DNA of 64,000 nucleotides. Origin: Prorocentrum cordatum (lineage: Eukaryota). The stretch spans positions 1-64,000 of the forward strand of contig CAUYUJ010000258.1 in assembly GCA_963575745.1 (NCBI GenBank). Direction: 5' to 3'. A program made the translations under genes and the position numbers. The first letter of the stretch is position 1. The number at the start of each line of letters is the position of its first letter. A model generated the notes under the pieces. That model ran no database searches, was not told where the DNA came from, and saw only the letters and a program-made list of their open reading frames with translations. Below are positions 7,051 to 53,682 of this stretch, one piece after another.

Positions 7051-7447
7051 GAAGAGTGGAACTGAGGTCGTGCTCTCCCATGGCCTTGTTGTTCGCCAGG
7101 GCTTGTATGTACAGTAGCATACAAGGATCAGGCACACATCTGTCTTAACAGTATCTGGCCCTGCGACAAATCCATGAGTAGTGGCATACCCCACTTCTCC
7201 AAGATCGACAAGCTGAAAGTACACACACACACGGCATTGTATGTGCCACGTCTCATTTTTGAGAGGTGGTATCTGAGTGTATCATTTCAGCTGGGGAGCA
7301 ACCAGCATGATTGACATCTCGATGCTGTGCCAGTGCCCAGGACAGCGTGATATTTGTATGACGCTGGGTAGCACATGGAATAGAAAGGTGATACCACACA
7401 GAGAAGGGTACATCGGATGACTCTTTCTGAAGTGCTGGAGGGGTCGC

Positions 7448-7969
7448 GCACACACCACCAACACACACCCACATACATCGCCCAGCACGCGACACACACA
7501 CACACACACCAGACGACGCACAACACAACACACAACACACAACGACCAACATATAACATCCAGCACACAACACGCAGCACACAATCCACACGGCACACAG
7601 CACACACAACAACGCACACAACACACATATATTCACAGACGCACACACATGCACCGCACACAACCAACGCAGCACACAAACCATACCACACACGGACAGC
7701 CACACACACCACACCCACGACACACGCAGGCACGCACTCACACAACACGCACACAACACACGCAACACACACATACACTACACACAGCATGCCCACACAC
7801 GCAAACAAATTCACACACTGACGGACGCACACGCACACGCACACGCACACGCACCCACACACGCACACGCACATGCCTCCCCAACCAAACACATACACAC
7901 ACCCACACACACACATACGCACACACACGCGCACACTCACGCACGCGCACACGCACACGCACACGCATC

Positions 7970-8010
<41 letters not shown>

Positions 8011-8134
8011 GCACACGCACACGCACACGCACAAGCGCACACGCACAAGCGCACACGCACACGCACACGCACACGCACGCACACGCACCCGCACACGCAG
8101 CGCACACGCGCGCACACGCACACGCACGCACACG

Positions 8135-8167
<33 letters not shown>

Positions 8168-8720
8168 ACACACGCACACCGCACACGCACGCGCACACGC
8201 ACGCGCGCACACGCGCACACGCGCACACGCACACACGCACACGCGCACACGCACACACGCACGCACGCACACACGCTCACACGCGCACGCGAACACACGC
8301 ATTCACGCACAAACGCACACGCACACGCACACGCACGCACGCACGCACGCGTGCACACTTACACGCACACGCACACGCACACGCACACGCAGACACACGC
8401 ACACGCACACGCACGCACGCACACGCACGCGCACACACGCACACGCACACGCACACGCACACGCACACGCACATGCGCACGCGTACGCGCACACGCTCAC
8501 GCACACGCACACGCACACACCCGCAGCCACACTCTCACACACATACACCGCATACACAAACAAGACACAGCACACACAGCACACACGACACACACACAGG
8601 CACTCTCACACACCATTCACATCAACACACAATACACAACACACAACATGCACAACACTTACAGCACTTACAGCACTTACAACGCTCACAACGCTTTCAA
8701 CATACAACGCGCAAAACACA
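7448..8720. repeat. CA-rich compound microsatellite (left flank of YR element)
   Basis: Direct inspection. Confidence 0.9.
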
Positions 8721-8790
8721 ATGACCAACGACCCCGTGAATACCTGTGTGCCGGAGGTAGCAAGAGAGTGTTCCATAGCTTTTTTGGTTC
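8721..8790 (+). repeat. Split direct repeat A1 of YR retrotransposon
   Basis: ATGACCAACGACCCCGTGAATACCTGTGTG...TTTTTGGTTC, repeated at 16172-16241. Confidence 0.95.
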
Positions 8791-8906
8791 AGTCAGCTGG
8801 CATTCGAAAGGTCCGTCCGGCAGCGAGCGGAAGCCCAGATACCGCTCTACCTGCCTTCGGCGCCTTCTTCGGGTGCAGGGCTCGCCCTCAGCCCAGCCGC
8901 GCGCGG

Positions 8907-10377
8907 ATGATGCCGCCGCTGCGGAGGCGCCCTGCCGGTGCGGGTCGCGGCGGAGGAGGTGTCGCCAAGCGACCGGCCGGCGCTCCAGGCGGAGGGAGAG
9001 CGGCGCGCTCGCGGAGCCAAGCCCGGCAGCCCAGGAGGGCGGCACGCGGCGAGGCCGAGGACGAGCCTGAAGCAGAGTCAGGCCCTTCTGGGGAGACATG
9101 GTATAAAAATCAGTCTTTTGAGCTCGGGCCGGGCTCCATCCTCGAGGTTGCACTCCACGGGGATGCGAGCACCTCATTCTGCAAGCTGCTGAAGATGCAT
9201 TCCGGCGAGGTTGGCGGCCACTACTATGACGTGTGGTGGTGTGGCAGCGGGGACAGAGGGGAACGTTCAGAGCTCAAGAGCGCGTACAAGGAGAATATCA
9301 AGCCAGACCTGCACCTCTGCGATTCTTCCTCGTGCAAGGGGGCGAAGGGTCGCCGGTCGGTGCTGCACGCCCACCGGTGGCGACTGCGCAGCGCCTCGGC
9401 GATCACCGAGAACCATTTCACCAACCCCCCGCCGACAGCTGTGGCGAATGCCGAGGAGGATGAGGAGGAGGAAGGTGCCGCTGCGGATGATCGCGTGGCC
9501 GGCTATCAGGGCAGGACTGAGCTGAAGAAGAGGCTGGAGGTCCTCAAGGCGAGGCTTGGTAAGGAGAGGTCGCCTGCAGGCGGCGGCCAGCCTGCGAAGA
9601 GGAGGAAGAAGGAGGACGAGGACGATGTCGATGATGAGCCACAGCGTCGGGGTTCCGTACTCGATCGTCCTGGGAATGCTGATGCAGCCTCCTCGCGCTT
9701 CAAGATGTCTGTTAAGGATGCCCTGGAGGAGGTCCACCAGCGCTTCAGTGATAAGCAGGATGAGGAGAGAGCCAGGCGGAAGAGAAGGAAGCGTTCGTCA
9801 CACGAACGTCATGGCCATCACCGGCGCCGTTCGCCCAGCCCTTCGACAGGTAAGTCTTCGAGTGCCTCCTCACATTCGCGTTTTCGCGGAGCCCGGGCCC
9901 CACACGAGCGCTTACAGCACCGTATGAGGGAGCGACCGGGCGAGATCTTGAGAGCAGGCGTTGGACAAGATGCGTACGTACCTCATACAGAGGGAGGGGG
10001 TCGACGACGCCAAGCTCTCGGGCTTATCGCCCGTGTTCGAGGCCTGCCTGACCGGCGTCTTCTTCCCAGGCGCGGGTCGCGACGTCTCTCTCCGGAACCG
10101 CGACGAGCTGAGGACGCTGGCAGCAGCAGTGGACCACATACTGCGGGGCGACACCCTCAAGGCGGCGGAGATGCTGGTGTGCCGGTTCCAAGCCGTGGAG
10201 ATTTCCCACGTGGACGGCTCGTGGCACTTCGCCCGTCACCTCACGGCGCTGGGGGAGGCGGCCGTCTCCAGCGTGACCAGCGAGGAGCGGGCCAAGGCGG
10301 TGCGGGCCGAGCAGAGGGAGCTGAAACTCAAGGCATTGGCCCAGGGCCTCGGGCAGCGAAAAGATGCGACCTACTGA
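8907..10377 (+). pseudogene. Gag-like ORF1 of YR retrotransposon (frameshift near 9955)
   Basis: ATG at 8907 (MMPPLRRRPA...), HLC...C...LH segment and Arg/Ser-rich region. Continues in another frame (9961-10377) with the helical block RDELRTLAAAVDHILRGDTLKAAEMLVCRFQAVE...GSWHFARHL. First ORF of the element. Confidence 0.7.
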
Positions 10378-11424
10378 GGGTGGGGCCGCGGAGCGTTGGA
10401 GCCCCCCAGCGCTCCCACCCCCTTCGGGAACAGTCGCGGGGCCCCCGCCTCCTCCTGGTCAACATGGCGCGGAGATGCCTTCGGAGGGCCCTGGGTCAGC
10501 CATGAGAGACCCTGCCTTCGGAGTCCGGAGGGTTTCTCTCGCCGCCGCCCCGGAGGCGAGCAGATCCGCCCCCCGGCTGACGGCGGGTCCCAGGGCGAGC
10601 GAGGGGGCGCCATGGAGGGGCCCGGCTGCTGCGGCGAGACCAGTAGGCCAGCATCCGCCCAGGGTGGAACGGGCTCTTCCGGACGGTCGGCCACCCGGCA
10701 GCCAAGGTGCTGGGACGCAGGGTCGAACGCGCCCAGGGCTGAAGAGAGGGAACTGGGTGGCGAAGAAGATCGAGGAGAGGAAAGCCGCGCAGGCAGCACG
10801 GAGGTCCGCCCGAGGTCAGCGGTGAAGGAGGCAGACGAGGACAGCGACGAGGAGTTGCGGCGGATTTCCCGGCGGCTGGGCGAGCCTGGCCTGGACATGG
10901 CCATGCTGGGGAGCATGCTTTACGAGTTCGCGCACATGCATCCTGAGTCAGTTCATGCTGGGGTTTCTCGCCTGCTTCGTGCACGCGATGGGTGCCCTTC
11001 CACCCGCTGGGTCTGGGCCGAAACATCTCGGTGTGGTAGTCTCTCGGAACATGGATACACCCTGATGTCGTTCTGGCGCCGCGGCTCGCTGCCGCCGTCG
11101 GGATCCTCGTTGGACTTACCACCTCGTCGTCTGTGCTACTTGACAGGCTGGGGCTGACGTCCTCGGGTCGTTCCCTTGTCCGCACCTGGACGTTGGAACG
11201 TTACCGCGCCATTTTGGCTGCGCTAGGTGGTCTCGGTGCCTACCTCAGGCCTGTTGGACGCACCTGCATGCCCGTTCAGGGGCTGTCACGGCACCTGGAT
11301 TGCATCGGCTTCGGCTTCCTGGACGCTGCCGTGAGCCGCCTGATCCGCGGCCCTGCGCGCGTTAGGTAATTTAGTCGCGTCCGCGGCCCGTTCGCGACCT
11401 TCCGCCGCTGGCGCTTCCGCCTGC

Positions 11425-11509
<85 letters not shown>

Positions 11510-11619
11510 TATTTTTTTTTTCTCCTTTTCCTTTTGTTTATATATATATATATATGTATAAACAAAAAACGCGCTGGGTTAGAGCGTAGCGTGGGGGGCC
11601 GGGCGCGCCGTTACGACGG

Positions 11620-12960
11620 ATTCGGCGTGCCTCCTCTCCTACCTCTGCCCTTGCCTTCAGATTCCGGGGAGGAATACGCCCTCAGCCTTGCAGACATCCC
11701 CAGCGATCAACAGACTCACCTGGGAGCGAAGCGCCTGCTACTTGCTCCAAGCCTGGCCGTGCGCAAGTGGTTATTCGTCATCGTGGTTCTGCTGAGCGCT
11801 TGGTACATGGGCGAGCAGCCTGCCTACACGATGCCTCCTAAGCCTTCGCTGCAGCAGCGGGTGGCGTATGCGCAACTCGCAGCACAGGTGGCCTTCTTCG
11901 TCGAGGGCCACGCCATTGTCACGCCGGCTCGCAATTGGTCGAGTTATCTGCACTCCAAGGATATCACTTACGAGGGCGAGGCGGCACAGAGAGCGCAGGC
12001 ACTTAGTTGGGCACAGGTCCTCCCAGACTTACCGCCGAAGGACAGGTGCGCCGCCCTGGACGTCATGCGTCTGGCCGCTGGCCCCGTCGCGCGTTACCTC
12101 GCCAAGCTGGCGGAGAGCCTTGTGGACCTCGGTTCTTTTCGAAAACGGCCGCGCCCGGGCAAGATGCTCATCAAGTCTGGCGAGGCTGTGCCGCTTGCGA
12201 CGGGCCTGTATGAGCGCCGCCTTCTTGTCCCACTCCTGGAGGAAGACTTGGTCAAGGTTGCAGGCGAGCCGCTGTTGAACGGCTGGTTTGGCATCGGAAA
12301 GGGCGAGTTTTTTGATGAGCACGCTCCGGAGCATCCTGGTGATGAAGTCCTTCGATTGATAATGAACTTGACCGCTACTAATGAGTGCGCAAGGGGGTTC
12401 GGTGGCGACATTGCGGCTTTACCGTATTTTTGCCAATGGAAGGCGTTCAGCGCTGATGAGGAACACTCTCTGACTTGGTCTTGGGACGACTTAAAAGGAG
12501 CATATTACATATTTTCTTTCCCAGAATGTTGGGCGCCGTATTTCGCCTTCGATATGAAGTTCAAGACGGCCGATTTCATGCTCCCCTCCAGGTTCGATGG
12601 CCACTGCGCCGGCTTCACATCTTAGGCAGGCCCTCGCCTTATCATTCGCTGCCGCTGGAGCGGGAGCTGCGCAAGGACAAGCCGGTCCCACTTCTGGCCC
12701 CCTCGAGGAATTCCAGAAGCTCTGGCAGGTATACTGCGACGACAGTGACTTCCCAGAGCTTGTCCCCTTGCTGTACGGCGACTCTGGCTCGGCCGAGGAT
12801 GTGCCAGGATCTAGTCCGCCTAGGGTGCGTTCCAACCCGTTCCAGGACGAGGCCAGGCGTCACTTCGAGGAGTACGGGCTGTCGCTTTCCAGGAAAAGCG
12901 GGACGCAAGAGGATGAGGCGAGACGACTAGGAGCTTGTACTCATGGTTCTTAGGCGGTCT
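11620..12960 (+). pseudogene. Reverse transcriptase domain of YR retrotransposon (frameshifted)
   Basis: LNGWFGIGK, LRLIMNL and WSWDDLKGAYY (RT motif A) in ORF 11534-12625; WQVYCDD (YxDD motif C) in ORF 12597-12953. The motif B region appears lost or frameshifted near 12600. Confidence 0.85.
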
Positions 12961-13244
12961 TGTGGCCAGGCGCCCACAGGTGGGCCGATGTGCTGGGCCT
13001 TACTGGCCACGTGCTCTCACGCCGGCGGACAGCGCGCAAGCCTCTGCAGATCTTGGCTGGACATTGGAACCATGTGTGCACTTTCCGCCGGGAGGTCTCT
13101 GGGGCCTTGCACGGCACGTGGCAGTTCATCACATTCTGGCTGGAAGCAGGGCAGCGCGACCTCGACATCAGCATCTTGCGCGAGTTCCTCGGCCTGTTGA
13201 TCATGGCGCCCTTGGTGCAGTTTAACCTCCGGAGCCCAGTGTCG

Positions 13245-14945
13245 CCCGTCATCACGGCTTCTGATGCCTCGGAGACCTGATGGGCTTCTGCGCGGCGACA
13301 GAGATGACAGAGGAGGCGAGGCTCTTGTTGGTTAAAGAGCTGGGGGCTTCGCTTGCCCGCGGTCGCGACAAGTGGGGTCTGCTCGAGCTGGGGAGTCGCA
13401 TTGGCGGCATTCGGCGAGCGTTTGACTTGCTCGGGGTCGAGGTCGCCTGCTACGCCCACGGCGCGTAAGGGGAAGCAGGCCAGCGCGTGCTTGAGCACGC
13501 GTGGCCAGGGGTGTCGTTCCTTGACGGGCTCCTCGGGGCGGAGCCGCAGGATTGCCGCGAATGGTTGGAGACGGCGTGCCACCTCGAGCACCTCGTGGCC
13601 TACTTGCAGCCATCGTCGACGTGCACCGCCTTGCAAGAGGAGAGGCGCCAGCGCTCTAAGAACGCAGTGTTGGCAGAGATCGCTGGCTTTATGTATTTGG
13701 TGGCCGGCCTGAGAAGGAGCCACCCGTGCCTGAGCGTTCACTACATGGTGGATGTGATGCAGCTCCCTGGGCTACCTACGTCTCTGCCGATCGAGGACAT
13801 CACGCGGCTCGTGGGCTGCGACTGCGTTGAGGTGGACTTCGAGGACTGGGGTGCGACGAAGCGGAAGAGGCTCCCATGGGCCAGCTGGGAGCTATCGCCC
13901 CCCTGCTTCGCACATGCTGGTTCGGAGGAGGCTGCGCCTCTAGCAGCATCTCGGTAGCAGAAATGCGCGTTGAGGCCCAAGGAGTTCCAGTCGGCTGCAT
14001 TCGAAGCCTTTGTGGGGCTTCGCCGGAAGAGGAGATCGGGGGAGTTGCTCGCCGCGGAGGCCGGCACGGGGACTTCCGCATCATCGTTCGCTCTAGAACT
14101 GTGGGCGCTTGATGGTGCCCGTTTTTCCTCTCGAGCAGTACGAGGCGAGCAACTTGGTCAGGGCGGCGCGGGTATGGCGGCCCCTCGTTTCTGAGGAGCG
14201 CGCGTGCAGGCTTGGCTACGCGTGGGAGCACTTGGACAGCGTGCGCGGGCCGAAGCATGCCCGCAGATGCCTCGTGGAGGCCGAGGGGGAGAAGCTGGTT
14301 TTGCTGGGCAACGCTGCTCCGGCGCCTCTACTTGCCTGGGGTCTGGGCTGCCTCCTGCATCGTGAAGGGGTTCTTCAACGCGAGCCATCCATATGCACTA
14401 GCTGGGGGTGGCCGGATGCGGAGGAGGTTCAAAGTGCCAACCTGATCCTAGGCGGCCCTTGGCAGCAGGTGGGCCCCAGTGATCTTCAAGCTCATGCGAT
14501 CTGGCAAATGGTGAGAAATTCAAGTTATCTGGGGAGCGACGTGCGCATTGCCGACCAGACGTTCTACAGGCCTGCAGTCTGGCCCTGGAGAGGGGCCAAT
14601 GCATCAAAGTGGAGTTGGAAGATTATCGCTAGTTTCCCTTATCAGCCTCAGCATATCAATGTTCTTGAGATGAAGGCGCTCATTACGTCGTGCCTGTGGA
14701 GGTTTAAAGATTGCCGGGCTCTGGGCGCTCGGATTGTCTTCTTCTGCGACTCTCAGGTTACGTTGGCGGTGCTGGCGAAGGGCGGGGCCAGTTCCAAGGC
14801 CCTGCGAGCACCCTCACTTCGGTTCAACGCTCTCATGCTCTGTTCTTCGGCTACACCGTATTACGTCTACGTGAGCACTGCCAGCAACCCGGCAGATGCT
14901 CCAATCCGCTATCGCCATGACGGGAGTTACGAGGAGGAGGCGTGA
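13245..14945 (+). pseudogene. RNase H domain split by an inserted methyltransferase-like domain
   Basis: First catalytic motif VITASDASE at ~13248-13275. Remaining motifs HINVLEMKAL (~14652), FFCDSQVTLAVLAKG (~14740) and YVSTASNPAD (~14870-14897) lie about 1.4 kb downstream. Confidence 0.82.
13370..14360 (+). pseudogene. C5 cytosine DNA methyltransferase-like domain (degenerate; catalytic PC motif not retained)
   Basis: Motif I-like GLLELGSRIGGIRRAFDLLG, motif VIII-like KRKRLPWASW, motif IX-like WRPLVSEERACRLGY and motif X-like LLGNAAPAPLLAW, in canonical order. Motif IV/VI positions read AYLQPSS/YMVDV. Confidence 0.72.
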
Positions 14946-15900
14946 GCAGCTTGGCCGGAGGACGAAGCAAGAGCGGAAGTGGGAGAGGCATCAAATTGGG
15001 AAACTACGAAATCTGGTGCTAGCGAAATCAACTCTCAGGCGCTATAAAGACGCAGTTCTGTATTACTTCGCGTTCATGGAAGAGCGTGGCAGGCGCATTC
15101 CGGGTGACGCCTATAAGCTGGATGACAGCGTGCAAAACTTCATCGAGCATTTGTGGGGCGAAGGAGAGCCCAGAGGATATGCCGGGGACGCCATCTGTGG
15201 GTTTCAACATTTCGCTCCAGCGGTCAAAAAGAATTTGTCTGGGTCGTGGAGGCTCCTTGGTACATGGCAGTCTCATGAGGTACCTTGTCGGGCAGAGCCG
15301 ATCACAGATGACGTAGCAATGGCGCTCATCGGCAGGGGGCTGCGCGAGAACGATGCCGGCATGGCTGCTGCTTATTATTTTGCTTATCGTTGCTATATGC
15401 GCACGGGCGAGGTTTACTGCAGAACCGCTCAAGATTTTACCCTTGACCTTCGATCTCGTACGGTTCACAACGACATGGGATGGATAAAAGGAGGCAATAG
15501 GAGAGGTGCCCGAGAGCCGGCGCACACCGATCATGAGGCGACGTTTTTGTTTTTGGCGAATGCGTTGTGGAACGCGCCGCCTGGCAAAGCGTTGCCCCCG
15601 CAGGGTGAGATGCAGCTGCGAGTAAGTTTCAAAAAGCACATCGTCGCTCTGGGTCTCGACCCGGATTCATATAAACCCTATTCTTTTCAAAGGGGTGGAG
15701 CGACCAGCGCTTTTTGGGCATCTGCCTCATGCGACATTGTCATGAGCGTGGGGGGGTGGATGTCGAGCCGGACGGCACGAAAATACATTGATACGTCTAG
15801 GGCAGCACTCAACGCTCAGACTTTCACAGTTTGCCAGGAGCAACGCATCCGGGCGGCCAAACGCATCTTTACTGAATTCCTGGGGGGCTTGACGCAATAG
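14917..15900 (+). CDS. Tyrosine recombinase of YR retrotransposon
   Basis: Uninterrupted ORF overlapping the end of the RNase H ORF. Motifs YMRTGE (Arg I), WIKGG (Lys), YSFQRGGAT (HxxR box variant), GGWMSS (Trp), RKYI (catalytic Tyr). Confidence 0.9.
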   Translation: MTGVTRRRREQLGRRTKQERKWERHQIGKLRNLVLAKSTLRRYKDAVLYYFAFMEERGRRIPGDAYKLDDSVQNFIEHLWGEGEPRGYAGDAICGFQHFAPAVKKNLSGSWRLLGTWQSHEVPCRAEPITDDVAMALIGRGLRENDAGMAAAYYFAYRCYMRTGEVYCRTAQDFTLDLRSRTVHNDMGWIKGGNRRGAREPAHTDHEATFLFLANALWNAPPGKALPPQGEMQLRVSFKKHIVALGLDPDSYKPYSFQRGGATSAFWASASCDIVMSVGGWMSSRTARKYIDTSRAALNAQTFTVCQEQRIRAAKRIFTEFLGGLTQ

Positions 15901-15968
15901 TGCATGCTGCGGCCCCGGGATGTTCCTCGCTCCCCCGCCTCCACCCGCATCATCAGAGGGGTGCGTGA

Positions 15969-16568
15969 ATACAGAGAGGGGTGAATCCTACAGGCCTTGG
16001 CGTGGGAGGGCGCCTGCCTGGATTCTGCAGGCCTTGGCGCGGGAGGGCACCTGCCTGTCACTCCTTCGCTTTGCGATTTCCCGCGGACTCTGGCACGCTT
16101 AGCGCGCCTGCCCGGCGTGGCGAATCGCGCGCCCATTGGCGCCAGCTGGCGCCGTAGGCGCAACGACAGGTATGACCAACGACCCCGTGAATACCTGTGT
16201 GCTGGAGGTAGCGAGAGAGTGTTCCATGGTTTTTTTGGTTCCCGTGTCCACCCAGCCCCACATTATATAAAACGTTCTTCCTTGGAAGGCTGAGGGCAAG
16301 CCGCAGTGGGAAGCAGTGATGGGGTGAATCCTACGGGCCTTGGCGCGGGAGGGCGCCTGCCTGGATACAGAGAGGGGCGAATCCTACAGGCCTTGGCGTG
16401 GGAGGGCGCCTGCCTGGATTCTGCAGGCCTTGGCGCGGGGGGGCGCCTGCCTGTCACTCCTTCGCTTTGCGATTTCCCTCGGGCTCTGGCGCGCTTAGCG
16501 CGCCTGCCCGGCGTGGCGAATCGCGCGCCCATTGGCACCAGCTGGCACCGTAGGCGCAAAAACAGGTA
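15969..16568 (+). repeat. 3' terminal B1-A2-spacer-B2 repeat block of YR retrotransposon
   Basis: B1 15969-16172, A2 16172-16241, B2 16365-16568; internal subrepeat GGCCTTGGCGYGGGAGGGCRCCTGCCTG. Confidence 0.93.
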
Positions 16569-16569
16569 C

Positions 16570-17045
16570 AAATACCAACCCACACACACCGCACAGCACA
16601 CGCCACACACACAACACACAACACACAACACACATAACACAACATGCACTACACAACACAACACGCGCCACACACGCCACACCCGCGCACCCACGCACAC
16701 ACGCACGCACGCACGCACGCACACACAACACAACACAACACAACACAACACAACACAACACAACGCAACACACAACACAACACAGCACAACACAACACAA
16801 CACAACACAACACAACAAAACACAATACACCACACACACCCACACCCACACACCCACGCACCCACAAACCAACGCACGCACACGCACGCACGCACGCCCG
16901 CCCGCCCGCCCGCCTGTCCGCGCGCGCGCTCGCACGCACGCACGCACAGACGCACGCACGCACGCGCGCGCGCGCAAGCGCGCGCGCACGCATGCACGCA
17001 CGCACGCGTACACGCAGGCACGCACGCACGCAGGCACGCAGGCAG

Positions 17046-17080
<35 letters not shown>

Positions 17081-17089
17081 CACACGCAC

Positions 17090-17130
<41 letters not shown>

Positions 17131-17920
17131 CGCACACACGCACACACGCACACGCACACGCGCACACGCGCACACGCGCACACGCGCACACGCGCACACG
17201 CGCACACGCGCACACGCGCACACGCGCACACGCGCACACGCGCACACGCGCACACGCGCACACGCGCACACGCGCACACGCGCACACGCGCACACGCGCA
17301 CACGCGCACACGCGCACACGCACACACGCACACACGCACACACGCACACACGCACACACGCACACACGCACACACGCACACACGCACACACGCACACACG
17401 CACACACGCACACACGCACACACGCACACACGCACACACGCACACACGCACACACGCACACACACACGCACACACGCACACACGCACACACGCACACACG
17501 CACACACGCACACACGCACACACGCACACACGCACACACGCACACACGCACACACGCACACACGCACACACGCACACACGCACACACGCACACACGCACA
17601 CACGCACACACGCACACACGCACACACGCACACACGCACACACGCACACACGCACACACGCACACACGCACACACGCACACACGCACACACGCACACACG
17701 CACACACGCACACACGCACACACGCACACACGCACACACGCACACACACACGCACACACGCACACACGCACACACGCACACACGCACACACGCACACACG
17801 CACACACGCACACACGCACACACGCACACGCAAACACAAACACACACGCACACACACACACGCACACCACACACACCACCCACACACCCACACACATTCA
17901 CACACATACACACACGCACT
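16570..17920. repeat. CA-rich compound microsatellite including (CACACACG)n (right flank of YR element)
   Basis: Direct inspection. Confidence 0.93.
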
Positions 17921-46833: not shown

Positions 46834-49790
46834 CTAAAATAACAAATTCTCGCGCCGCATGCAAAGCAAAACCGCAAAATCTACAATCATAAACTCTCGC
46901 GCGGCATGCAAATCAAAACCGCAACGAAGAAATGAAATAATAAAAATTAGCTGTGAGCGTTCACTTGTGAACTCGGTCGTCACCTCGCCCGCTCTGCGAA
47001 CCCCTTGGGTCTCATGCTGAAACCTCCAGACGTCTCCGCTGAGCTTGTACGTCGTCATGCTCTGCACTCCCACCGTCCTGGCCATGTACACATCGCCCGA
47101 CGAGCCGCCCCGCTCCTCTCTTGGTGGCTCCTTCGGCTCGCGCTCCTCGATGCGCTCCATCTCGGCCTTCGCCCGTAGAACCGCCAGTTCCGTCTTATAC
47201 TTGTACTCGGCCTCCTTTGTCTTGATCAGGTAGGATGCAACCGGGTAGGCTCCCATTAACCCGAGAAGTAGGAACAACATGGCGAACCAGACCACAATGC
47301 CGTAGCCGTCGTCCTTGTCCTTCGTGTCGTAGCCTGCACGGGCCGCCGATCTGCAACAGCAAGTTGCGAAAACTGCCATCTGCATGAATGGGGTCGTCGC
47401 CTTCCGCGTCGCCGCCGATGTCACCGGCCTCGTCTGATCTATGCTCTCCTGTCGCTCCTCTTTGGTCTTCTTCTTCGCCGCCGTGTAGGTCGGGTCGTAC
47501 TTGAGCTGTAGCCTCCCATATCGCAAACGGTCGGCGAGGAGCTGCCTCGCCGCGATCTTCGTGAGCCCGTCCGCGTACTGCCTCTCTGAAGATACCCACC
47601 TCCAGCGTGTCATCGTAGCCTCCATCCTCTCGCGCAGCGCTAGCACCTCGATGCCGGTCCGCTTGTCCTGGAAGCTGGTGATGCTCTCCTTCTGGGCCGC
47701 GTCGTAGAGCGCCTTCGCGTCCACAACCAATGCCGACTCACCTGCCATGTGAGTGCTCTCGTCCTTCGTGATGTCCACGCCGTCGTAGATCATAGCTGCC
47801 CAGAATCGCTTCGCAAACTCCAGGCCGTCCATACCCGCTACTGCTGCCTGCGACTCCGCATGTAGTGAGGAACGTGCCATGCGCAGTAGCTTGAAGGACT
47901 TCCAGTCGATCACGCTGAAGTCGGACTCGTATCCGTCGAATGTCTTCTTGTGGCATGCCAAGATGACGTAGCCACCTTGACTGGACCCGTCTTGTCGAAC
48001 TCCCCAGGCCGCGTCCGTCATAGCTACGAACACTATGTCGCACACTTGGCCGATCTTCTTCATCTTGAGCCCGACGTCCGAGTTCTGCTTGTAGAACCGC
48101 AGCGTCTTGTTCGCCTCCTTGGCTGTGCCAACCGTCGCCGTAGGTAATTGGCCCTGGTGAATGCTGACCGAAGCCGAAAGGTGCGGGCACGCCTGAGAGC
48201 TTGGCCACTGCAACGCTCCGAGTAGGCCTCGTAGCTGCCGCTTCTCCTTGATCGTGAGCTCCCTTGTGTTGTCGCTACTCTTCTGGTCGATCGTGATGGG
48301 CTTCAGGTTCTTCGCGTAGGTCGCCATCTTCACCTCAATCTCGCTGCTATTCGACTTCGGGTTGTCCCAGTGCGGGGTCTGCGTCACGTCGCTGCCGCAG
48401 TAGTCCATCTTGTCGACCTCGATCCATTTCCTGAACTTGAACTTCCGCTTCACCTCGGTGATAACCCGACCGCAGTTACTGCCCGGCCGCCGATCTCCAC
48501 TTCCCAGCATATCGTCCACATAAAGTAGAAAGAACCCGTCGCAGTTGCCGTCCTCGTCGAAGCTGAGGAACATGCAGGGGTCCAGGGGATGCTGCTTTAG
48601 ATAGCTGGCCTTCAGGTCGTCCACCGCACGTAGCCACCAACGCCTTGGTGCGTCCACCTGGCCGTACATGGGCTTGATGAGCTTCATCAGGGTGTCCGGC
48701 TCGATGCCCATGAGCTCTGCCGCGTCTTTGGGCACCTTCGCGTATAGCTCACGCTCTTGGGGTCGTCCTTGAAGAAATGCAGTAGCTACGTCTGCTGTCC
48801 AAAGCCTCCAGCCGTTACTAGCCACCAGTAATAGCGCCATCTGTCTTGCCAATCTCGATGCTGTAGGCGATGCCGTCGGTACTGCGCCGCTGAGTGCGTC
48901 GGGGTCGTTGAAACCTTGCAGAACCAGCCGCGCCTTGGCACGTGGTGTGCCGTCGTCGTTGTTCGTCCACTTGAGCACCCGCTTCGCCTTGAGTATCCGC
49001 CGAGAGTCCTCCTCGCCGGTGGGCTTGTGAAACTCCCAGACGTCATTGCCGAAGAACTCCGTCAGCTCCTTCCGCTTGCCCTGCATGAACGCCGCGCGCT
49101 CGTGGGGCGTCATGTTCCTCGTACTGATGTCCACGAAGATGTCGCTGAGCTTTGCCTCCGTGCCGTCGAACTCCCAGCCGAATGGCAGGTCCTGACTGGT
49201 GACCATCAGCTGTAGAGCTGCAAGTTCGTCGTCCGCGTCGTCGAGGTCCGGTACTGGTACCGCGCTGCTCAGTCCAGGTTCGGGTAGCGTGCCTCGGAAG
49301 ACTCCTCCTCCAGGTCCGGTGAAAATCGCCGCCTCTGCTTTGTCCATCCCGAGCCGCTCCTTCTGAAGATTCGACATAAACCTCAACTGCGTCTGTGTAG
49401 ATCCGAGCTCCTGCTCCGATGATGGTACTGCCGCCGCTGATGACGATGATGCTGCTGGCTGCGCTGTCTGCGCTGGCTGTGCTGGCTGCGCCGCCGGTTG
49501 AGCTGCTGGCTGCTCTGGCTCTGGTGGGGGTGTCGTCGGCATCGGCTCCTGATCTGGCTGACCAGAGTTCGACGTCTGTCGACTGCCGTCGGGTGCTGGC
49601 GCCTCCGCGTCTGGAAGATCCTCCGCTGGAGCTGCCGCGGCTGGTGGCGCCTCTGGTGCTACTGAGGCTGCTGCCGCCGCTGACCCGGACGACGACGCCT
49701 GTGCTGGTACCTCCACCTCTGGGGCCGTCATAGGACGTGGACCGCCTCCTCGACGTCGCGTAGATGCTGGACCTTCGTCTCCGTCCTCCG
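46834..49790 (-). CDS. Copia RT + RNase H with C-terminal transmembrane/coiled-coil extension (3' part of pol, open frame)
   Basis: KARLVLQGF, TADVATAFLQG, LIKPMYGQVDAPRRW, LYVDDMLG (copia RT); MTDAAW, RSSLHAESQA, VVDAKALYD, QYADGLTK (RNase H). Confidence 0.92.
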
Positions 49791-50780
49791 CGTTTGTTCT
49801 TGATGAGCTTGTTGGTTTTGCCCTCGCGCCAGTAGTAGCACCGCTGGCCGATGGAAAGGTCGTGCTTGAGCGCCACATGTCGCCGTGGGAGTGCGCGTCG
49901 TAGCTTGGCTGAGGCGTCCGCCTTCATGAAGGCTAACGCCGCCATAGACCTCCTCTCCAGCACGTCCTTGAAGTCCTCGTCCTCCTTCATCTGGTACAGC
50001 GTCGCTGGTGAGAACTTGTCGCTGGAGTTGGCCATCGTCGTAGTGGGGTCCATGCCCAGAACCCACTGGCATGGCGAGTACCCCTTCGTGAACGCCAGTC
50101 GGTTGACCTGGTGGGGCACGTAGATGCACGCCTCGGTGATCAGCTTCTCGTCGAGCACCATGTTGGCCGTGCGCTCGATCGCGTCCTGACAGTAAAGCTC
50201 GATCGCTTCTCGAACCACCTGATGGCGTTGCTCCACCACTCCGAGACTCGCGTGAACCTCGCCTGCTGCGATCACGATACTAATGCTGTACTGCTGCAGA
50301 AACTGCGTGAACTTGTCCGACGCGAAGCCTGGGCCGTCGTCGGTACGTAGCTCGCCCATGGGACCGAGCTGCCTGATCCAGCCGCGCTCGACCGCCTTGA
50401 TCAGTTCGTCGGCCGTCTGCGTCTTGATCGTCCGTAGGGCACAGTACCTGGTAGCGCCGTCCACCATTGACAATATTGCCGTCTTGCCTGTCGCGGTCTT
50501 GACCCAGAACACGTCGGTATAGACGGTTTCGTTGAACTTCGTCGGCTGCTTGGCTGACGCTGTGGGGGCCTTCGGCGGGCGCTGCCGCTGCATGCAGTGC
50601 TCGCAGCGATACTCTGCCGCGCAGTTGAGCACGTTCTCTTGAGCTCCCGCTTGCTGTATTAGCCGATGTAGTACCGTCGGGTTGGGGTGCCCCATGTTCC
50701 GGTGTAGCCGCTTGACGTAGCGCAACGCCTCGGTGCCGTACTTCTCGCGTAACTGCGAGTGCACGTGGACAACCTCCTCC
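49790..50780 (-). pseudogene. Copia integrase
   Basis: HHCC zinc domain LHRNMGHP...CEHC; DDE core YTDVFW / RTDDGPGF / GVVEQRH; GQRCYYWR, then an abrupt frame change near 49795 (probable internal deletion). Confidence 0.9.
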
Positions 50781-50869
50781 TTCGTCGTCTCGTCCGTCGA
50801 GGTGGGTTTGCTGCCGCTGCTGACGTCCTCGCCGTTGTAGATCTCCTCGACCTCGGCTTCCACCATGAC

Positions 50870-51520
50870 CTGCGCCAGGGTGGCTGCCAGGATGAACGGG
50901 TAGTCCTCCGTGACCTTCGTGCGCTTGACGCCGCTGCCGTCCACGTTGCCCTCCAATGATGCGTGCTGATGGCGCCTGTCGCATCGCGTGCTCATGATTG
51001 CCTACATGAGTTTCTTGGTGGTCCTGATGGTGGTTGGCTTCTTGACCGGCTGATCGTCACTCCCTGGTAGGGTGAGGCCGTACATGCACTGGTCGAAGGT
51101 CGCCGTGTAGCCTGGTAGGTTGGACCAGGCCTTCGTCTGCCAGGGCCTCGATGTGGCTGGATGCTCCACGTGAGCGTGACGTCCGCCCTCGTGCTGGATG
51201 TGGTAGACGTCCGCCACGAACTGCAGGTGCGTCCGGTGATGCCAGTCGCGTAGCTCGATAAGGTACTCCTTCCAACCAGGATGCTGGTAGATGTTCAGTT
51301 CCTGCATGTTGGACCAGGGTCCGTACGCCGGGGAAAGATGAACTTCGTCTGGCTGTTCTTCGCGTAGCTTGCGCTTGAACCGCTCCCGGTGCTCAACCTT
51401 CGCGAAGTCCCAGCACGTGTGTAGCCCGTGTGTAGCCCGAACGTTTCGACGTCCGCTCCGAGGTCGCGTAGGCTCTGAGATAGCCGCGCCTCGCCAGCAT
51501 AGACCTCCCAGACCTTCCGT
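50870..51520 (-). pseudogene. C5 DNA methyltransferase-like domain inside copia pol, between protease and integrase
   Basis: VWEVYAGEARLS (motif I-like), WDF, HLSPAYGPWS (motif IV SPPC-like, Cys read as Tyr), HVEHP (motif VI ENP-like), FDQCMYG...VKKPTTIRT (motif VIII-like), CDRRHQH, YPFILA. Broken by an 11-bp duplication (51416-51437) and a TAG (51002-51004). Confidence 0.68.
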
Positions 51521-51591
51521 CGCGTAGTGCAGCGCTTCGCCGCTGCCCGCCGCATCGTCTGCATGTACTGGTCGCTCGCGTGCTTGATCGC

Positions 51592-53682
51592 CTAGTGGAT
51601 CTTCTGAATGAAGTTGGTCGTGACCTGCCTTTTGTCGCCGTCGTCGCTGCTGGACGTGTCCTGCTCGGTGAGCTGCGTCATGTCGCTGGAGGCGTCCGCC
51701 AGGCACCAGCATGGCTCTGGCAGGTTCGGGTCGACTGGCTGGATCGGCGTTGTCGTGAAGCAGAGGTTGCCGCAGGAAGCGTGATTTCGGCACCGATACT
51801 GCTTCATGCATTCGCCGCAGCAGTTGACCTTCACGACTCGTTGCGGGCATCCTTCTGAGTGCGCCCGCTGCGGTGTAACCTCCCACTGCTCCTCGTCGCT
51901 GCTGCTGATGTTGTCGACCTTGTAGATCTCGTCTAAGAACTCCAGGCCGATGATGGTCCTGTTGCCGTCCACGAACTCCTTGAAGTCGACCGGCTCGTAC
52001 TCGAAGTCGAACTCCGCGTCCTTCGTCTGGTCGTCCAGGTTCTCGAGCAGGTCCACCATGTAGTGGCCTTGCGGAGACGTACGCGCCTCCTCGTAGCTGC
52101 CGCCGTTCCACGCCAGCTGCTGATTCGCAAAGTCGACCTGCACTGCGAACTTCTCCAGTAGGGGCCGTGGGAAGAGGATTGGCGGCTTCCCTGGAGCGAG
52201 GTAAATGCACAGGGTCCCCGTCTTGTTCTTGAAGCTCGCTGGAATGATGCCGCACCACAGCGCGTGCCCCACCTTACCGTTGCCGAATCGGAATGGCCTC
52301 CGACACGTGTGGAACTCCAGCGTCTCGATCGGGTAGCCCTTGGAGTGGCACGCTGCCAGGTACTCCTTGGTGGTCTCCGAACCTGACATAAGCGTAGTCG
52401 CGCCGCCGTCCAGGATCGCCAACTGTGCGGGAATGATGCTGGCCGTTTTGCGGTTGTCCCAGTAGACCTCGTCAACCATCATCTCTTGATCCATCTGTCC
52501 GTGGGGCCGCTTCTTCGGTGGCTCCGGGCAGTCCTTCGCCCAGTGTCCGACTCCGCCGCATCGTAGACACGTCGCCTTGGATGGTGCTGGCCTCGTAGCT
52601 GCTTCCGCCCTCTCAGTAGGTCTCGGCCTCGTGTAAGGATTGAATGGGCGATGTGGTGCCGATGGTGGTGAGCCCGTCCGTCCTGGGCTGCCCTTTCGTC
52701 CAGCTCCTCGAGAACGTCCGCGTCCTTTGGCTGCGCCCTTACTGGGTGGGCGCCTCGGTGCTGCTGATGCTGATGATCCCGTCGCGCCAGGTACCATCGC
52801 CACGACCGGGTAGTAGCCGCGTGCGAGCTTCAGGTCGTTGAAGCGCTTGCGCGCGTCGTGGTAGGCCGCGTAGACCTCGTCGTATTCCGACACGTCGAAG
52901 TCCTGCACCGTCGCCGTATCCCGCTGATAGTAGGCCTCCTCGCAGTCGTACCAGCTCTCGTCGCCTTCCTCGGCCCAGTACTCCTGCTCGTAGCCGTCAT
53001 CGAACTCTAGTTCGTCGTCTTGGCCATAGTATGCATCTTCTTCGTAGTACTCTCCTGTCTCTTCGTCCACGTGGTACTGCTTCCGTGCATGATTAGGCTC
53101 GTATACCGTGCTCTCCTGTCCGAATGTTGTCTCCAGCGCCTCAATCACTTTGTCCTGTGTGATGTCCTTGCCCACGATGGACATGATGACTGCCTTCTGG
53201 TCTGAACTGTAGCCGCCTCGTCGTAAGATCAGCCATCCACGAACCTTGGATGGCAACTCGATGTCGATCGTCTTGAGCTTCCGCTCTGCTGCTCGAACTC
53301 TTGAGATGTAGCTGAAGAGCGTCTCTGCTCGATTGCGTCGTAGCTTGTAAAAGTACTCCTCGAAGTCATCTGCCAACTCCGTCCGCGTGTCCATCTTGAA
53401 TCGCTTCCGTAGGCGTGTGAGTAACGCTGTAGCCGCGCCAGGCTTGATCAGGTCTTCCGCCGTGAAGTCCTCAACTTCGTCCCAAGCTTCGCCTGTCAGC
53501 CCGGCCGATAACATGAGAGCCGCCTCGCCCTCCTTCTTCTCTTAGGTCAGCTTCGCTATGAACATTGTCGCCCGCTTCTCGTACTCCTTCCATCTCGAAA
53601 GTGTTCCGTCGAACTGTGGAACTCCGCGTTCCGGTAGTATTGCCTGATGGTCGTCTGCTGCTCTGCCGCCTGCTTTCGCCAT
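51592..53682 (-). pseudogene. Copia gag + aspartic protease (in-frame TAA at 53542-53544, TAG at 51592-51594)
   Basis: VPQFDG N-terminal gag motif, zinc knuckle CLRCGGVGHWAKDC, protease AILDGGAT followed by FRFGNG. ORFs 53542-54033 and 51592-53514 are in the same frame. Confidence 0.9.

Follow-up and report, generated by a model that had tools for sequence, protein, structure and literature searches.

The analyzed window, a 64-kb stretch (64,000 nucleotides) of Prorocentrum cordatum DNA, contains a retrotransposon of the tyrosine-recombinase (YR) type that spans approximately 7.8 kb (8721-16568) and carries its repeats in the order A-coding-B-A-B. The element has the following components:

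8721..8790, plus strand: repeat A (terminal direct), copy 1, 94% identical to 16172-16241.
8800..10377, plus strand: ORF(s) in gag position, charged and of low complexity; start approximate, called gag from position.
11636..13229, plus strand: reverse transcriptase (RT) and downstream helical region of pol; tblastn matches to P0001-P0003 at 31-41% identity (in-frame pieces).
13230..13300, plus strand: N-terminal part of RNase H; strand β1 with the first catalytic Asp (13263) and, after a frameshift, strand β2 GFCAAT (13283-13300).
13301..14500, plus strand: Dnmt3-like C5-methyltransferase insert with flanking helices, placed by HMM, alignment, and a relative's structure; ends approximate.
14505..14915, plus strand: C-terminal part of RNase H; helix-GSDVR subdomain and strand β3 WKIIASF; E 1e-37 (HMM).
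14875..15900, plus strand: tyrosine-recombinase ORF in a frame of its own, whose start overlaps the 3' end of pol; similar to the region that follows pol in relatives.
15962..16172, plus strand: repeat B, copy 1, 94% identical to 16358-16568.
16172..16241, plus strand: repeat A, copy 2.
16358..16568, plus strand: repeat B, copy 2, forming the 3' end of the element.

The 9952-10377 portion of the gag-position ORF(s) matches the region upstream of pol in relatives (tblastn with P0031, P0113, P0011, and P0015), and Pfam searches returned no match for either the gag-position ORF(s) or the tyrosine-recombinase ORF. The RT catalytic aspartates are located at 12488, 12738, and 12741, and the RT region resembles retroviral RTs in the predicted model of a relative; the C-terminal part of RNase H contributes the catalytic residues Glu 14667, Asp 14748, and Asp 14895, and the pol frame ends at 14945, shortly after the NPAD motif. 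The copy is broken: pol contains stops at 12951, 13466, and 13955 and frameshifts near 12590, 12705, 13280, and 14123, of which the first stop and the first two frameshifts fall in the RT region, and the other two stops together with the frameshift near 14123 disrupt the insert. The repeat pairs differ at 16 of 281 sites (5.7%), or approximately 3% per copy, and no second copy of the element is present within the 64-kb window. In the recombinase ORF, we take MRTGE (15397), PYSFQRGG (15676), and ARKYID (15775) to be the recombinase motifs. Positions 15676-15699 read YSFQRGG vs. YSIRRGG in the relative P0011; the CAA codon presumably occupies the position of a likely catalytic Arg, and the change is consistent with decay of the window copy.

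Three further features of the window were recorded alongside. The 5' part of pol is broken by approximately 620 bases at 10960-11590 (ends approximate) that include a T run of about 100 bases and a TA stretch (11426-11560); these bases may represent a minus-strand, poly-A-tailed insertion, for which we found no target-site duplication and, within the window, no second copy or origin. Long CA/CACG-type microsatellite tracts lie at both flanks of the element (approximately 7400-8700 and 16570-17900) and may point to insertion into simple repeats. A Copia-type LTR retrotransposon with three long frames (zinc knuckle, integrase core, and RVT_2) occupies 46834-53541 on the minus strand.

Searches of Pfam and NCBIfam with the window pieces alone gave no match. 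The Pfam family PF00145 was found in seven of the eight longer relatives retrieved with the C-terminal piece of the window, and the best solved matches of the relatives are DNMT3A and DNMT3B, both by sequence and by predicted structure; the Dnmt3-type assignment is one by similarity. The nearest relative, P0001, shares 41% identity with the window in RT, 14-37% in the insert, and 48% in RNase H. An insert HMM built from 62 motif-intact relatives, with the window excluded, matches the window at 13394-13897 (E 6e-13) and at 14124-14360 (E 3e-6); the read-through window piece scores 47.9 bits, vs. a best score of 2.2 among the 91 reported from 200 shuffled versions.

The motifs of this domain are unevenly preserved in the window copy. 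Motif I at 13379 (LGSRIG) has Phe replaced by Gly and Gly by Arg, motif IV at 13604-13627 (QPSSTC) has lost PC, and motif VI at 13748 (VDV) has EN replaced by VD, so that the FxGxG / PC / E-N/S-V signature of active C5-methyltransferases is absent. The register of motif IV is ambiguous, as SSTCT (13613-13627) can be aligned to GSPCQ with its Cys retained; the PC dipeptide is lost in either register. The RxR of motif VIII (13859, KRKRLPW), motif IX (14208, ERACRLGY), and the GN of motif X (14301, LLGN) are kept. The replacement of PC and ENV (LQPSS, VDV), recognized in the earlier sequence-only reading of this DNA, is thereby confirmed and extends to motif I. Among 54 complete relatives with the same arrangement, 52 keep the F and G of motif I, PC, the motif VI Glu, RxR, and GN.

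The methyltransferase motifs are flanked on both sides by RNase H motifs. All motifs named in the sequence-only reading are at the positions given there. The motifs run from ITASDASE at 13251 (frame 3), through LLELGSRIGG 13379, LQPSS 13604, VDV 13748, and KRKRLPW 13859 in frame 2, to RLGY 14208, LLGN 14301, HINVLE 14652, CDSQ 14745, and NPAD 14886, again in frame 3. The D-E-D-D carboxylates of RNase H are all present in the window copy (D 13263, E 14667, D 14748, and D 14895), and together with those of RT all seven carboxylates are intact; the invariance of the four RNase H residues across the 56 alignment rows is partly circular, since these residues were partly used in choosing the rows. 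For this motif-conservation alignment, a pattern filter set aside 62 of the 117 fetched proteins as incomplete, and 23 of these were returned for the RT + RNase H tree. Wherever both motifs were found among 116 relatives, the DAS-to-HINxLE spacing is 382-529 residues, with a stretch of approximately 390 residues (393 in the window) separating β2 from the remaining RNase H fold. The nesting is common to all 54 complete relatives, Symbiodinium kawagutii genes included; eight S. kawagutii gene models are among the relatives, seven of which have both RNase H motifs, 431-529 residues apart. The named relatives are all dinoflagellate (Prorocentrum cordatum and Symbiodiniaceae). In the intact relatives P0001-P0008, RT, RNase H, and DNMT are encoded by a single ORF, with which the window copy is collinear and frame-broken, and in 61 relatives the nested-family Pol stops 3-31 residues after RNase H.

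A sister YR family provides the uninterrupted form of this RNase H. In P0118 (labelled Symbiodinium sp. CCMP2592), the DAS and HINxLE motifs are approximately 75 residues apart; a search with this protein gave 364 proteins at E up to 1e-30, the best 150 of which were taken, and 71 of the 151 sister proteins examined (P0118-P0268) have a complete RNase H with a DAS-to-HINxLE spacing of 74-92 residues. The sister family shares with the nested one the homologous RT and RNase H, including an extra helix-G-x-x-x-R-L subdomain between β2 and β3; unlike it, the sister family has no insert and carries a different C5-methylase-like domain after RNase H. The latter domain shows motif I, PC, and ENP in order in 25 of 55 proteins with a long tail, and was matched by the Dnmt3-type HMM in none of 151 proteins and by Pfam in none of 29. 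The HMM of the sister RNase H matches the window in two places, with profile positions 1-39 at nucleotides ~13180-13300 (10.6 bits, E 0.002) and positions 88-189 at ~14600-14910 (55.2 bits). The same HMM is split in two parts on 73 of 119 targets, window included; the first part in most cases stops at profile position 39-40, where β2 ends, and the second starts from 41-44 onward, therefore the insertion point lies directly after β2. The insertion precedes the short helix-GxxVRL subdomain, which is present before β3 in both the nested and the sister families. Thus, the methyltransferase domain sits inside RNase H throughout the family, and this is the ancestral state of the family. The nesting proposed as a trait of the window's lineage is real, but it belongs to the whole family, as seen in 54 complete relatives, 52 of which are catalytically intact by motif.

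The catalytic motif of RT varies between these families. Most nested-family RTs read YxDN rather than YxDD (40 of 56 aligned; YxDNxD in 72 by pattern among P0001-P0117), the window RT reads YCDDSD, and the sister family has DD. To judge from the residues alone, the downstream Asp might stand in for the lost RT Asp in the YxDN members.

The fold of the split RNase H was predicted for relatives, at approximately 40% identity to the window copy, from family alignments that favour the intact fold. The AlphaFold2 model of P0001 residues 639-1226 (588 residues) has a pLDDT of 89.7 and a pTM of 0.88, with strands at 24-34 and 38-44 that correspond to β1 and β2. RNase H1 (4e19) aligns over residues 25..588 of this model (Z 13.2, rmsd 2.2, 122 of 133 residues), as do RNase H1 3aly (Z 12.7, rmsd 2.2, 120 residues) and HIV RT (Z 10.2, rmsd 2.7, 117 residues), whereas DNMT3B covers only residues 66..405 (Z 26.6, rmsd 3.1, 276 aligned); these ranges report the first and last aligned residue only. 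The RNase H match came from the wide structural search, and Foldseek with the 588-residue model gave DNMT3 chains only, among the matches listed. When the two RNase H halves of P0001 were folded as separate chains without the insert, ipSAE reached 0.78 vs. 0.01 for the best control, at a mark that 51 of 78 solved pairs and 2 of 108 mismatched pairs reach; contact agreement between runs was at least 85% and partner pLDDT at least 61. The contacts join residues 29-33 with 528-530 and 39-43 with 486-491, that is, β1 with β4 and β2 with β3, although this result may derive from likeness to solved RNase H structures. In the predicted five-stranded sheet, β1 adjoins β4 and β2 adjoins β3, and the β1-β4 pairing sets D33 next to D532; the catalytic D33 stands where the β1-β2 turn begins, and the exit of the insert, behind residue 44, is at the opposite sheet edge.

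The two halves are thus predicted to make one RNase H1 fold, with the insert looped out of the β2-β3 hairpin. Several claims of the sequence-only reading are borne out by these results. The gap between the RNase H motifs is C5-methyltransferase-like by both the insert HMM and the DNMT3B match of the relative's domain; it is inserted into the RNase H fold, as indicated by the split of the sister HMM and the alignment of RNase H1 across the insert; and the two halves assemble into one fold with the methyltransferase looped out, in the model of P0001 rather than of the window copy. The DAS motif falls within the RNase H fold by HMM and by the relative's model. The suggested coupling of RNA removal to the methyltransferase holds as far as a covalent tether is concerned, but in the predicted strand register the insert leaves β2 at the end remote from the catalytic carboxylates. 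Since the insert is placed at the sheet edge away from the active site, the model argues for covalent tethering only and not for substrate hand-off.

The origin of this arrangement can be considered from the relation between the two families. In an unrooted tree of nested and sister proteins, a single branch (100) separates the two groups; 6 of 16 sister rows entered this tree, the other 10 having been dropped by pattern. A swap of the C-terminal methylase for the nested Dnmt3 is possible on this unrooted, thinly sampled tree. A more far-reaching account would have an ancestral dinoflagellate YR retrotransposon exchange its dispensable C-terminal C5-methylase for a Dnmt3 in the β2-β3 hairpin, thereby forming a rigid RT-RNase H-methylase machine that marks cDNA during RNA removal and that several lineages then made into a dead DNA-binding module; we regard this account as tentative and rather unlikely.

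Loss of the methylase with the insert retained recurs in the family, on the evidence of sequence. Relatives that also lack catalytic motifs are P0003, P0011/P0113, P0014, P0016/P0031, and P0091, of which P0011, P0113, P0016, and P0031 are single gene models and possibly decayed copies themselves. A 25-row tree made without the insert has four changes of PC state, and the dead rows are interleaved with PC-bearing rows on trees from RT + RNase H columns only; these trees are quick or FastTree runs in which the end branch of the window is long. The AU test rejects a single clade of the window with P0003 and P0113 (p 0.03), as well as a single clade of five dead rows (p 0.0001). The insert measures 288-371 residues in those dead relatives that span it, and the full-length Pol model of the dead relative P0003 (pTM 0.88) still matches DNMT3A (E 4e-8).

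It is conceivable, though unlikely, that selection maintains the nested dead domain as a pseudo-enzyme with a role in binding cDNA or target DNA, in promoting RNase H processivity or the loading of the recombinase, or in protecting CG sites against host methylases. The window retains the full length of the insert together with RxR, motif IX, and the GN of motif X but lacks the SAM-binding and catalytic motifs, as a DNA-binding role would have it; in the IX-X region, it keeps six of nine conserved columns, as does P0091. However, the window keeps only three of nine conserved columns between motifs VIII and IX, and P0003, P0113, and P0014 lack RxR or much of the region after motif VIII and keep 0-3 of the nine IX-X columns, leaving no DNA-binding surface common to the dead lineages. 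That these lineages differ in what stays after motif VIII argues against one shared decoy function. Of the dead DNA-binding or decoy methyltransferase suggested from the sequence, the death is likely, and the decoy is doubtful given that other dead lineages lose RxR and motifs IX and X. As a separate observation, motif I reads E-L/V-G or L-G in several dead lineages (window 13379-13408; P0003, P0113, and P0091) and L-F in active ones, possibly a convergent change at the SAM-binding loop.

The timing of the loss can be assessed from the window copy itself, which keeps 61 of 80 conserved RT + RNase H columns vs. 8 of 20 in methylase motifs I-VIII (Fisher p 0.003); for the same columns, P0001 keeps 75 of 80 and 18 of 20, and P0002 76 of 80 and 20 of 20. 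To arrive at the motif codons of the window takes a minimum of 10 base changes; when 16 motif codons are tested, kept ones included, the p value is 1e-6 for 3% decay, 5e-4 for 6%, and 0.02 for 10%. The 19 conserved RT + RNase H columns that the copy has lost (6 of them in a misframed stretch) exceed what the divergence of the repeats would predict. A metagenome scan with the C-terminal piece for a further copy of this lineage returned 100 pattern matches and no confirmed relative. At 0.89-0.95, CpG observed/expected in pol carries no trace of self-methylation. Motifs I, IV, and VI were likely lost in this lineage before the window copy decayed, as far as one copy can tell.

The opposite order of events, in which the methylase was active when the window copy inserted and the motif losses are the copy's own decay, appears quite improbable to us. 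A single base suffices for each of several changes (E>V, N>D, G>R, and P>T), the Cys is retained in one motif IV register, and pol has at least three stops and 3-4 frameshifts on a long end branch; but the change of Phe to GGG takes three base changes, the Cys-keeping register takes a two-codon shift, the losses are concentrated in motifs I-VIII, and all seven RT + RNase H carboxylates remain intact in a copy whose repeat pairs differ by so little. Finally, it is highly improbable that the DAS motif is not RNase H β1 and that the methylase merely follows RT and precedes an RNase H that is complete or truncated: the N-terminal HMM match in the window is weak when taken alone and the structural ranges mark end residues only, but the sister HMM splits into contiguous parts, 122 of 133 RNase H1 residues align across the P0001 model, the predicted β1-β4 pairing brings D33 to D532, and the C-terminal part has no other D-A-x-x-x-x-G-G strand.

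We propose, with a probability of roughly 0.65, that the element is a decayed YR retrotransposon with split direct repeats, in which a Dnmt3-like domain lies between the RNase H halves and is predicted to loop out of β2-β3; that in most relatives this domain probably acts on newly made DNA of its own element as a methylase; and that it probably died here before the copy decayed and was probably kept as a structural passenger. The proposed sequence of events would start from the domain order, the one insertion point directly after β2, and the four RNase H carboxylates, all read from the sequence. In the predicted fold, the halves would form one RNase H1 domain with the insert away from the active site, so that degradation of the RNA template would still be possible. 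In the PC-bearing members, the RT would then copy the RNA, the split RNase H would remove it, and the tethered Dnmt3 might methylate CG sites in cis, its target being double-stranded cDNA or a fresh insertion of its own element. According to the main text of PMC5890265, isolated SymbioDIRS-Dnmt3 domains perform de novo CG methylation in yeast, and the cis role of the SymbioDIRS DNMT is the proposal of its authors (de Mendoza et al., 2018, PMC5890265). Because DIRS-1 cDNA is reported as single-stranded in PMC7192593, methylation may perhaps be delayed until second-strand synthesis or integration.

A C-terminal accessory domain could be lost by one stop codon; removal of the nested domain would demand an exact in-frame deletion, one leaving β1-β2 and the catalytic Asp joined to the rest of the enzyme. 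Once selection on methylation lapses, the active site would erode and the scaffold would stay, and the dead insert would be kept because a stop or a crude deletion would part β1-β2 and the catalytic Asp from the remaining RNase H. On this proposal, a published retrotransposon family is no longer a case of beads on a string but one of a domain embedded in an essential enzyme, and RNase H1 has a site that accepts an insertion of approximately 400 residues. It also offers a simple reason for the persistence of a captured host gene even when dead, and cautions that retention of a domain is no proof that its activity is used. Active and dead lineages occurring side by side make the role of retrotransposon DNMTs testable. 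The scope is modest, being a wiring detail of a known family seen in a dead copy.

Among cellular proteins, the pseudo-methylases DNMT3L and DNMT3B3 are likewise dead Dnmt3-type folds and appear among the structure matches of the P0001 model; unlike the insert, DNMT3L serves an active partner as a host cofactor. The split RuvC domain of Cas9 is an RNase H-like fold with very large insertions, located at other positions and not methylases. Compared by description, Ngaro elements share the gag-pol-YR order and the A-pol-B-A-B repeats with the window element, but their Pol is described in PMC3783388 without a methyltransferase. DIRS1-type elements are also YR retrotransposons with a methyltransferase in Pol; as outlined in PMC3783388 and PMC7192593, however, DIRS1 has inverted terminal repeats and an adenine-methylase (Dam)-like domain, whereas the window element has direct repeats and a nested C5/Dnmt3-like domain, and the strict DIRS1 features of inverted terminal repeats and a Dam-like domain after RNase H are absent from it.

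The closest known system is SymbioDIRS-Dnmt3 of Symbiodiniaceae, for which the main text of PMC5890265 gives the same A-coding-B-A-B repeats, a Pol ORF that joins a Dnmt3-like domain to RT and RNase H, and a separate tyrosine-recombinase ORF. That paper speaks of two domain orders and plots varying DNMT conservation in its Fig. 2b; its main text does not describe the DNMT as splitting RNase H, and its Fig. 1e may draw RT-DNMT-RNase_H. Both bioRxiv 10.64898/2026.05.21.726589 and PMC6338049 mention the SymbioDIRS-Dnmt3 family, without nesting in the passages that name it, and the literature searched, mostly at listing level, held no description of a methylase nested in RNase H. The SymbioDIRS-Dnmt3 family is thus already known, and its nesting within RNase H was not found in print. 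Unlike SymbioDIRS-Dnmt3, which has conserved DNMT catalytic residues, the window element has lost motifs I, IV, and VI, and we file it as a dead-DNMT lineage of the SymbioDIRS-Dnmt3 clade rather than as a canonical member.
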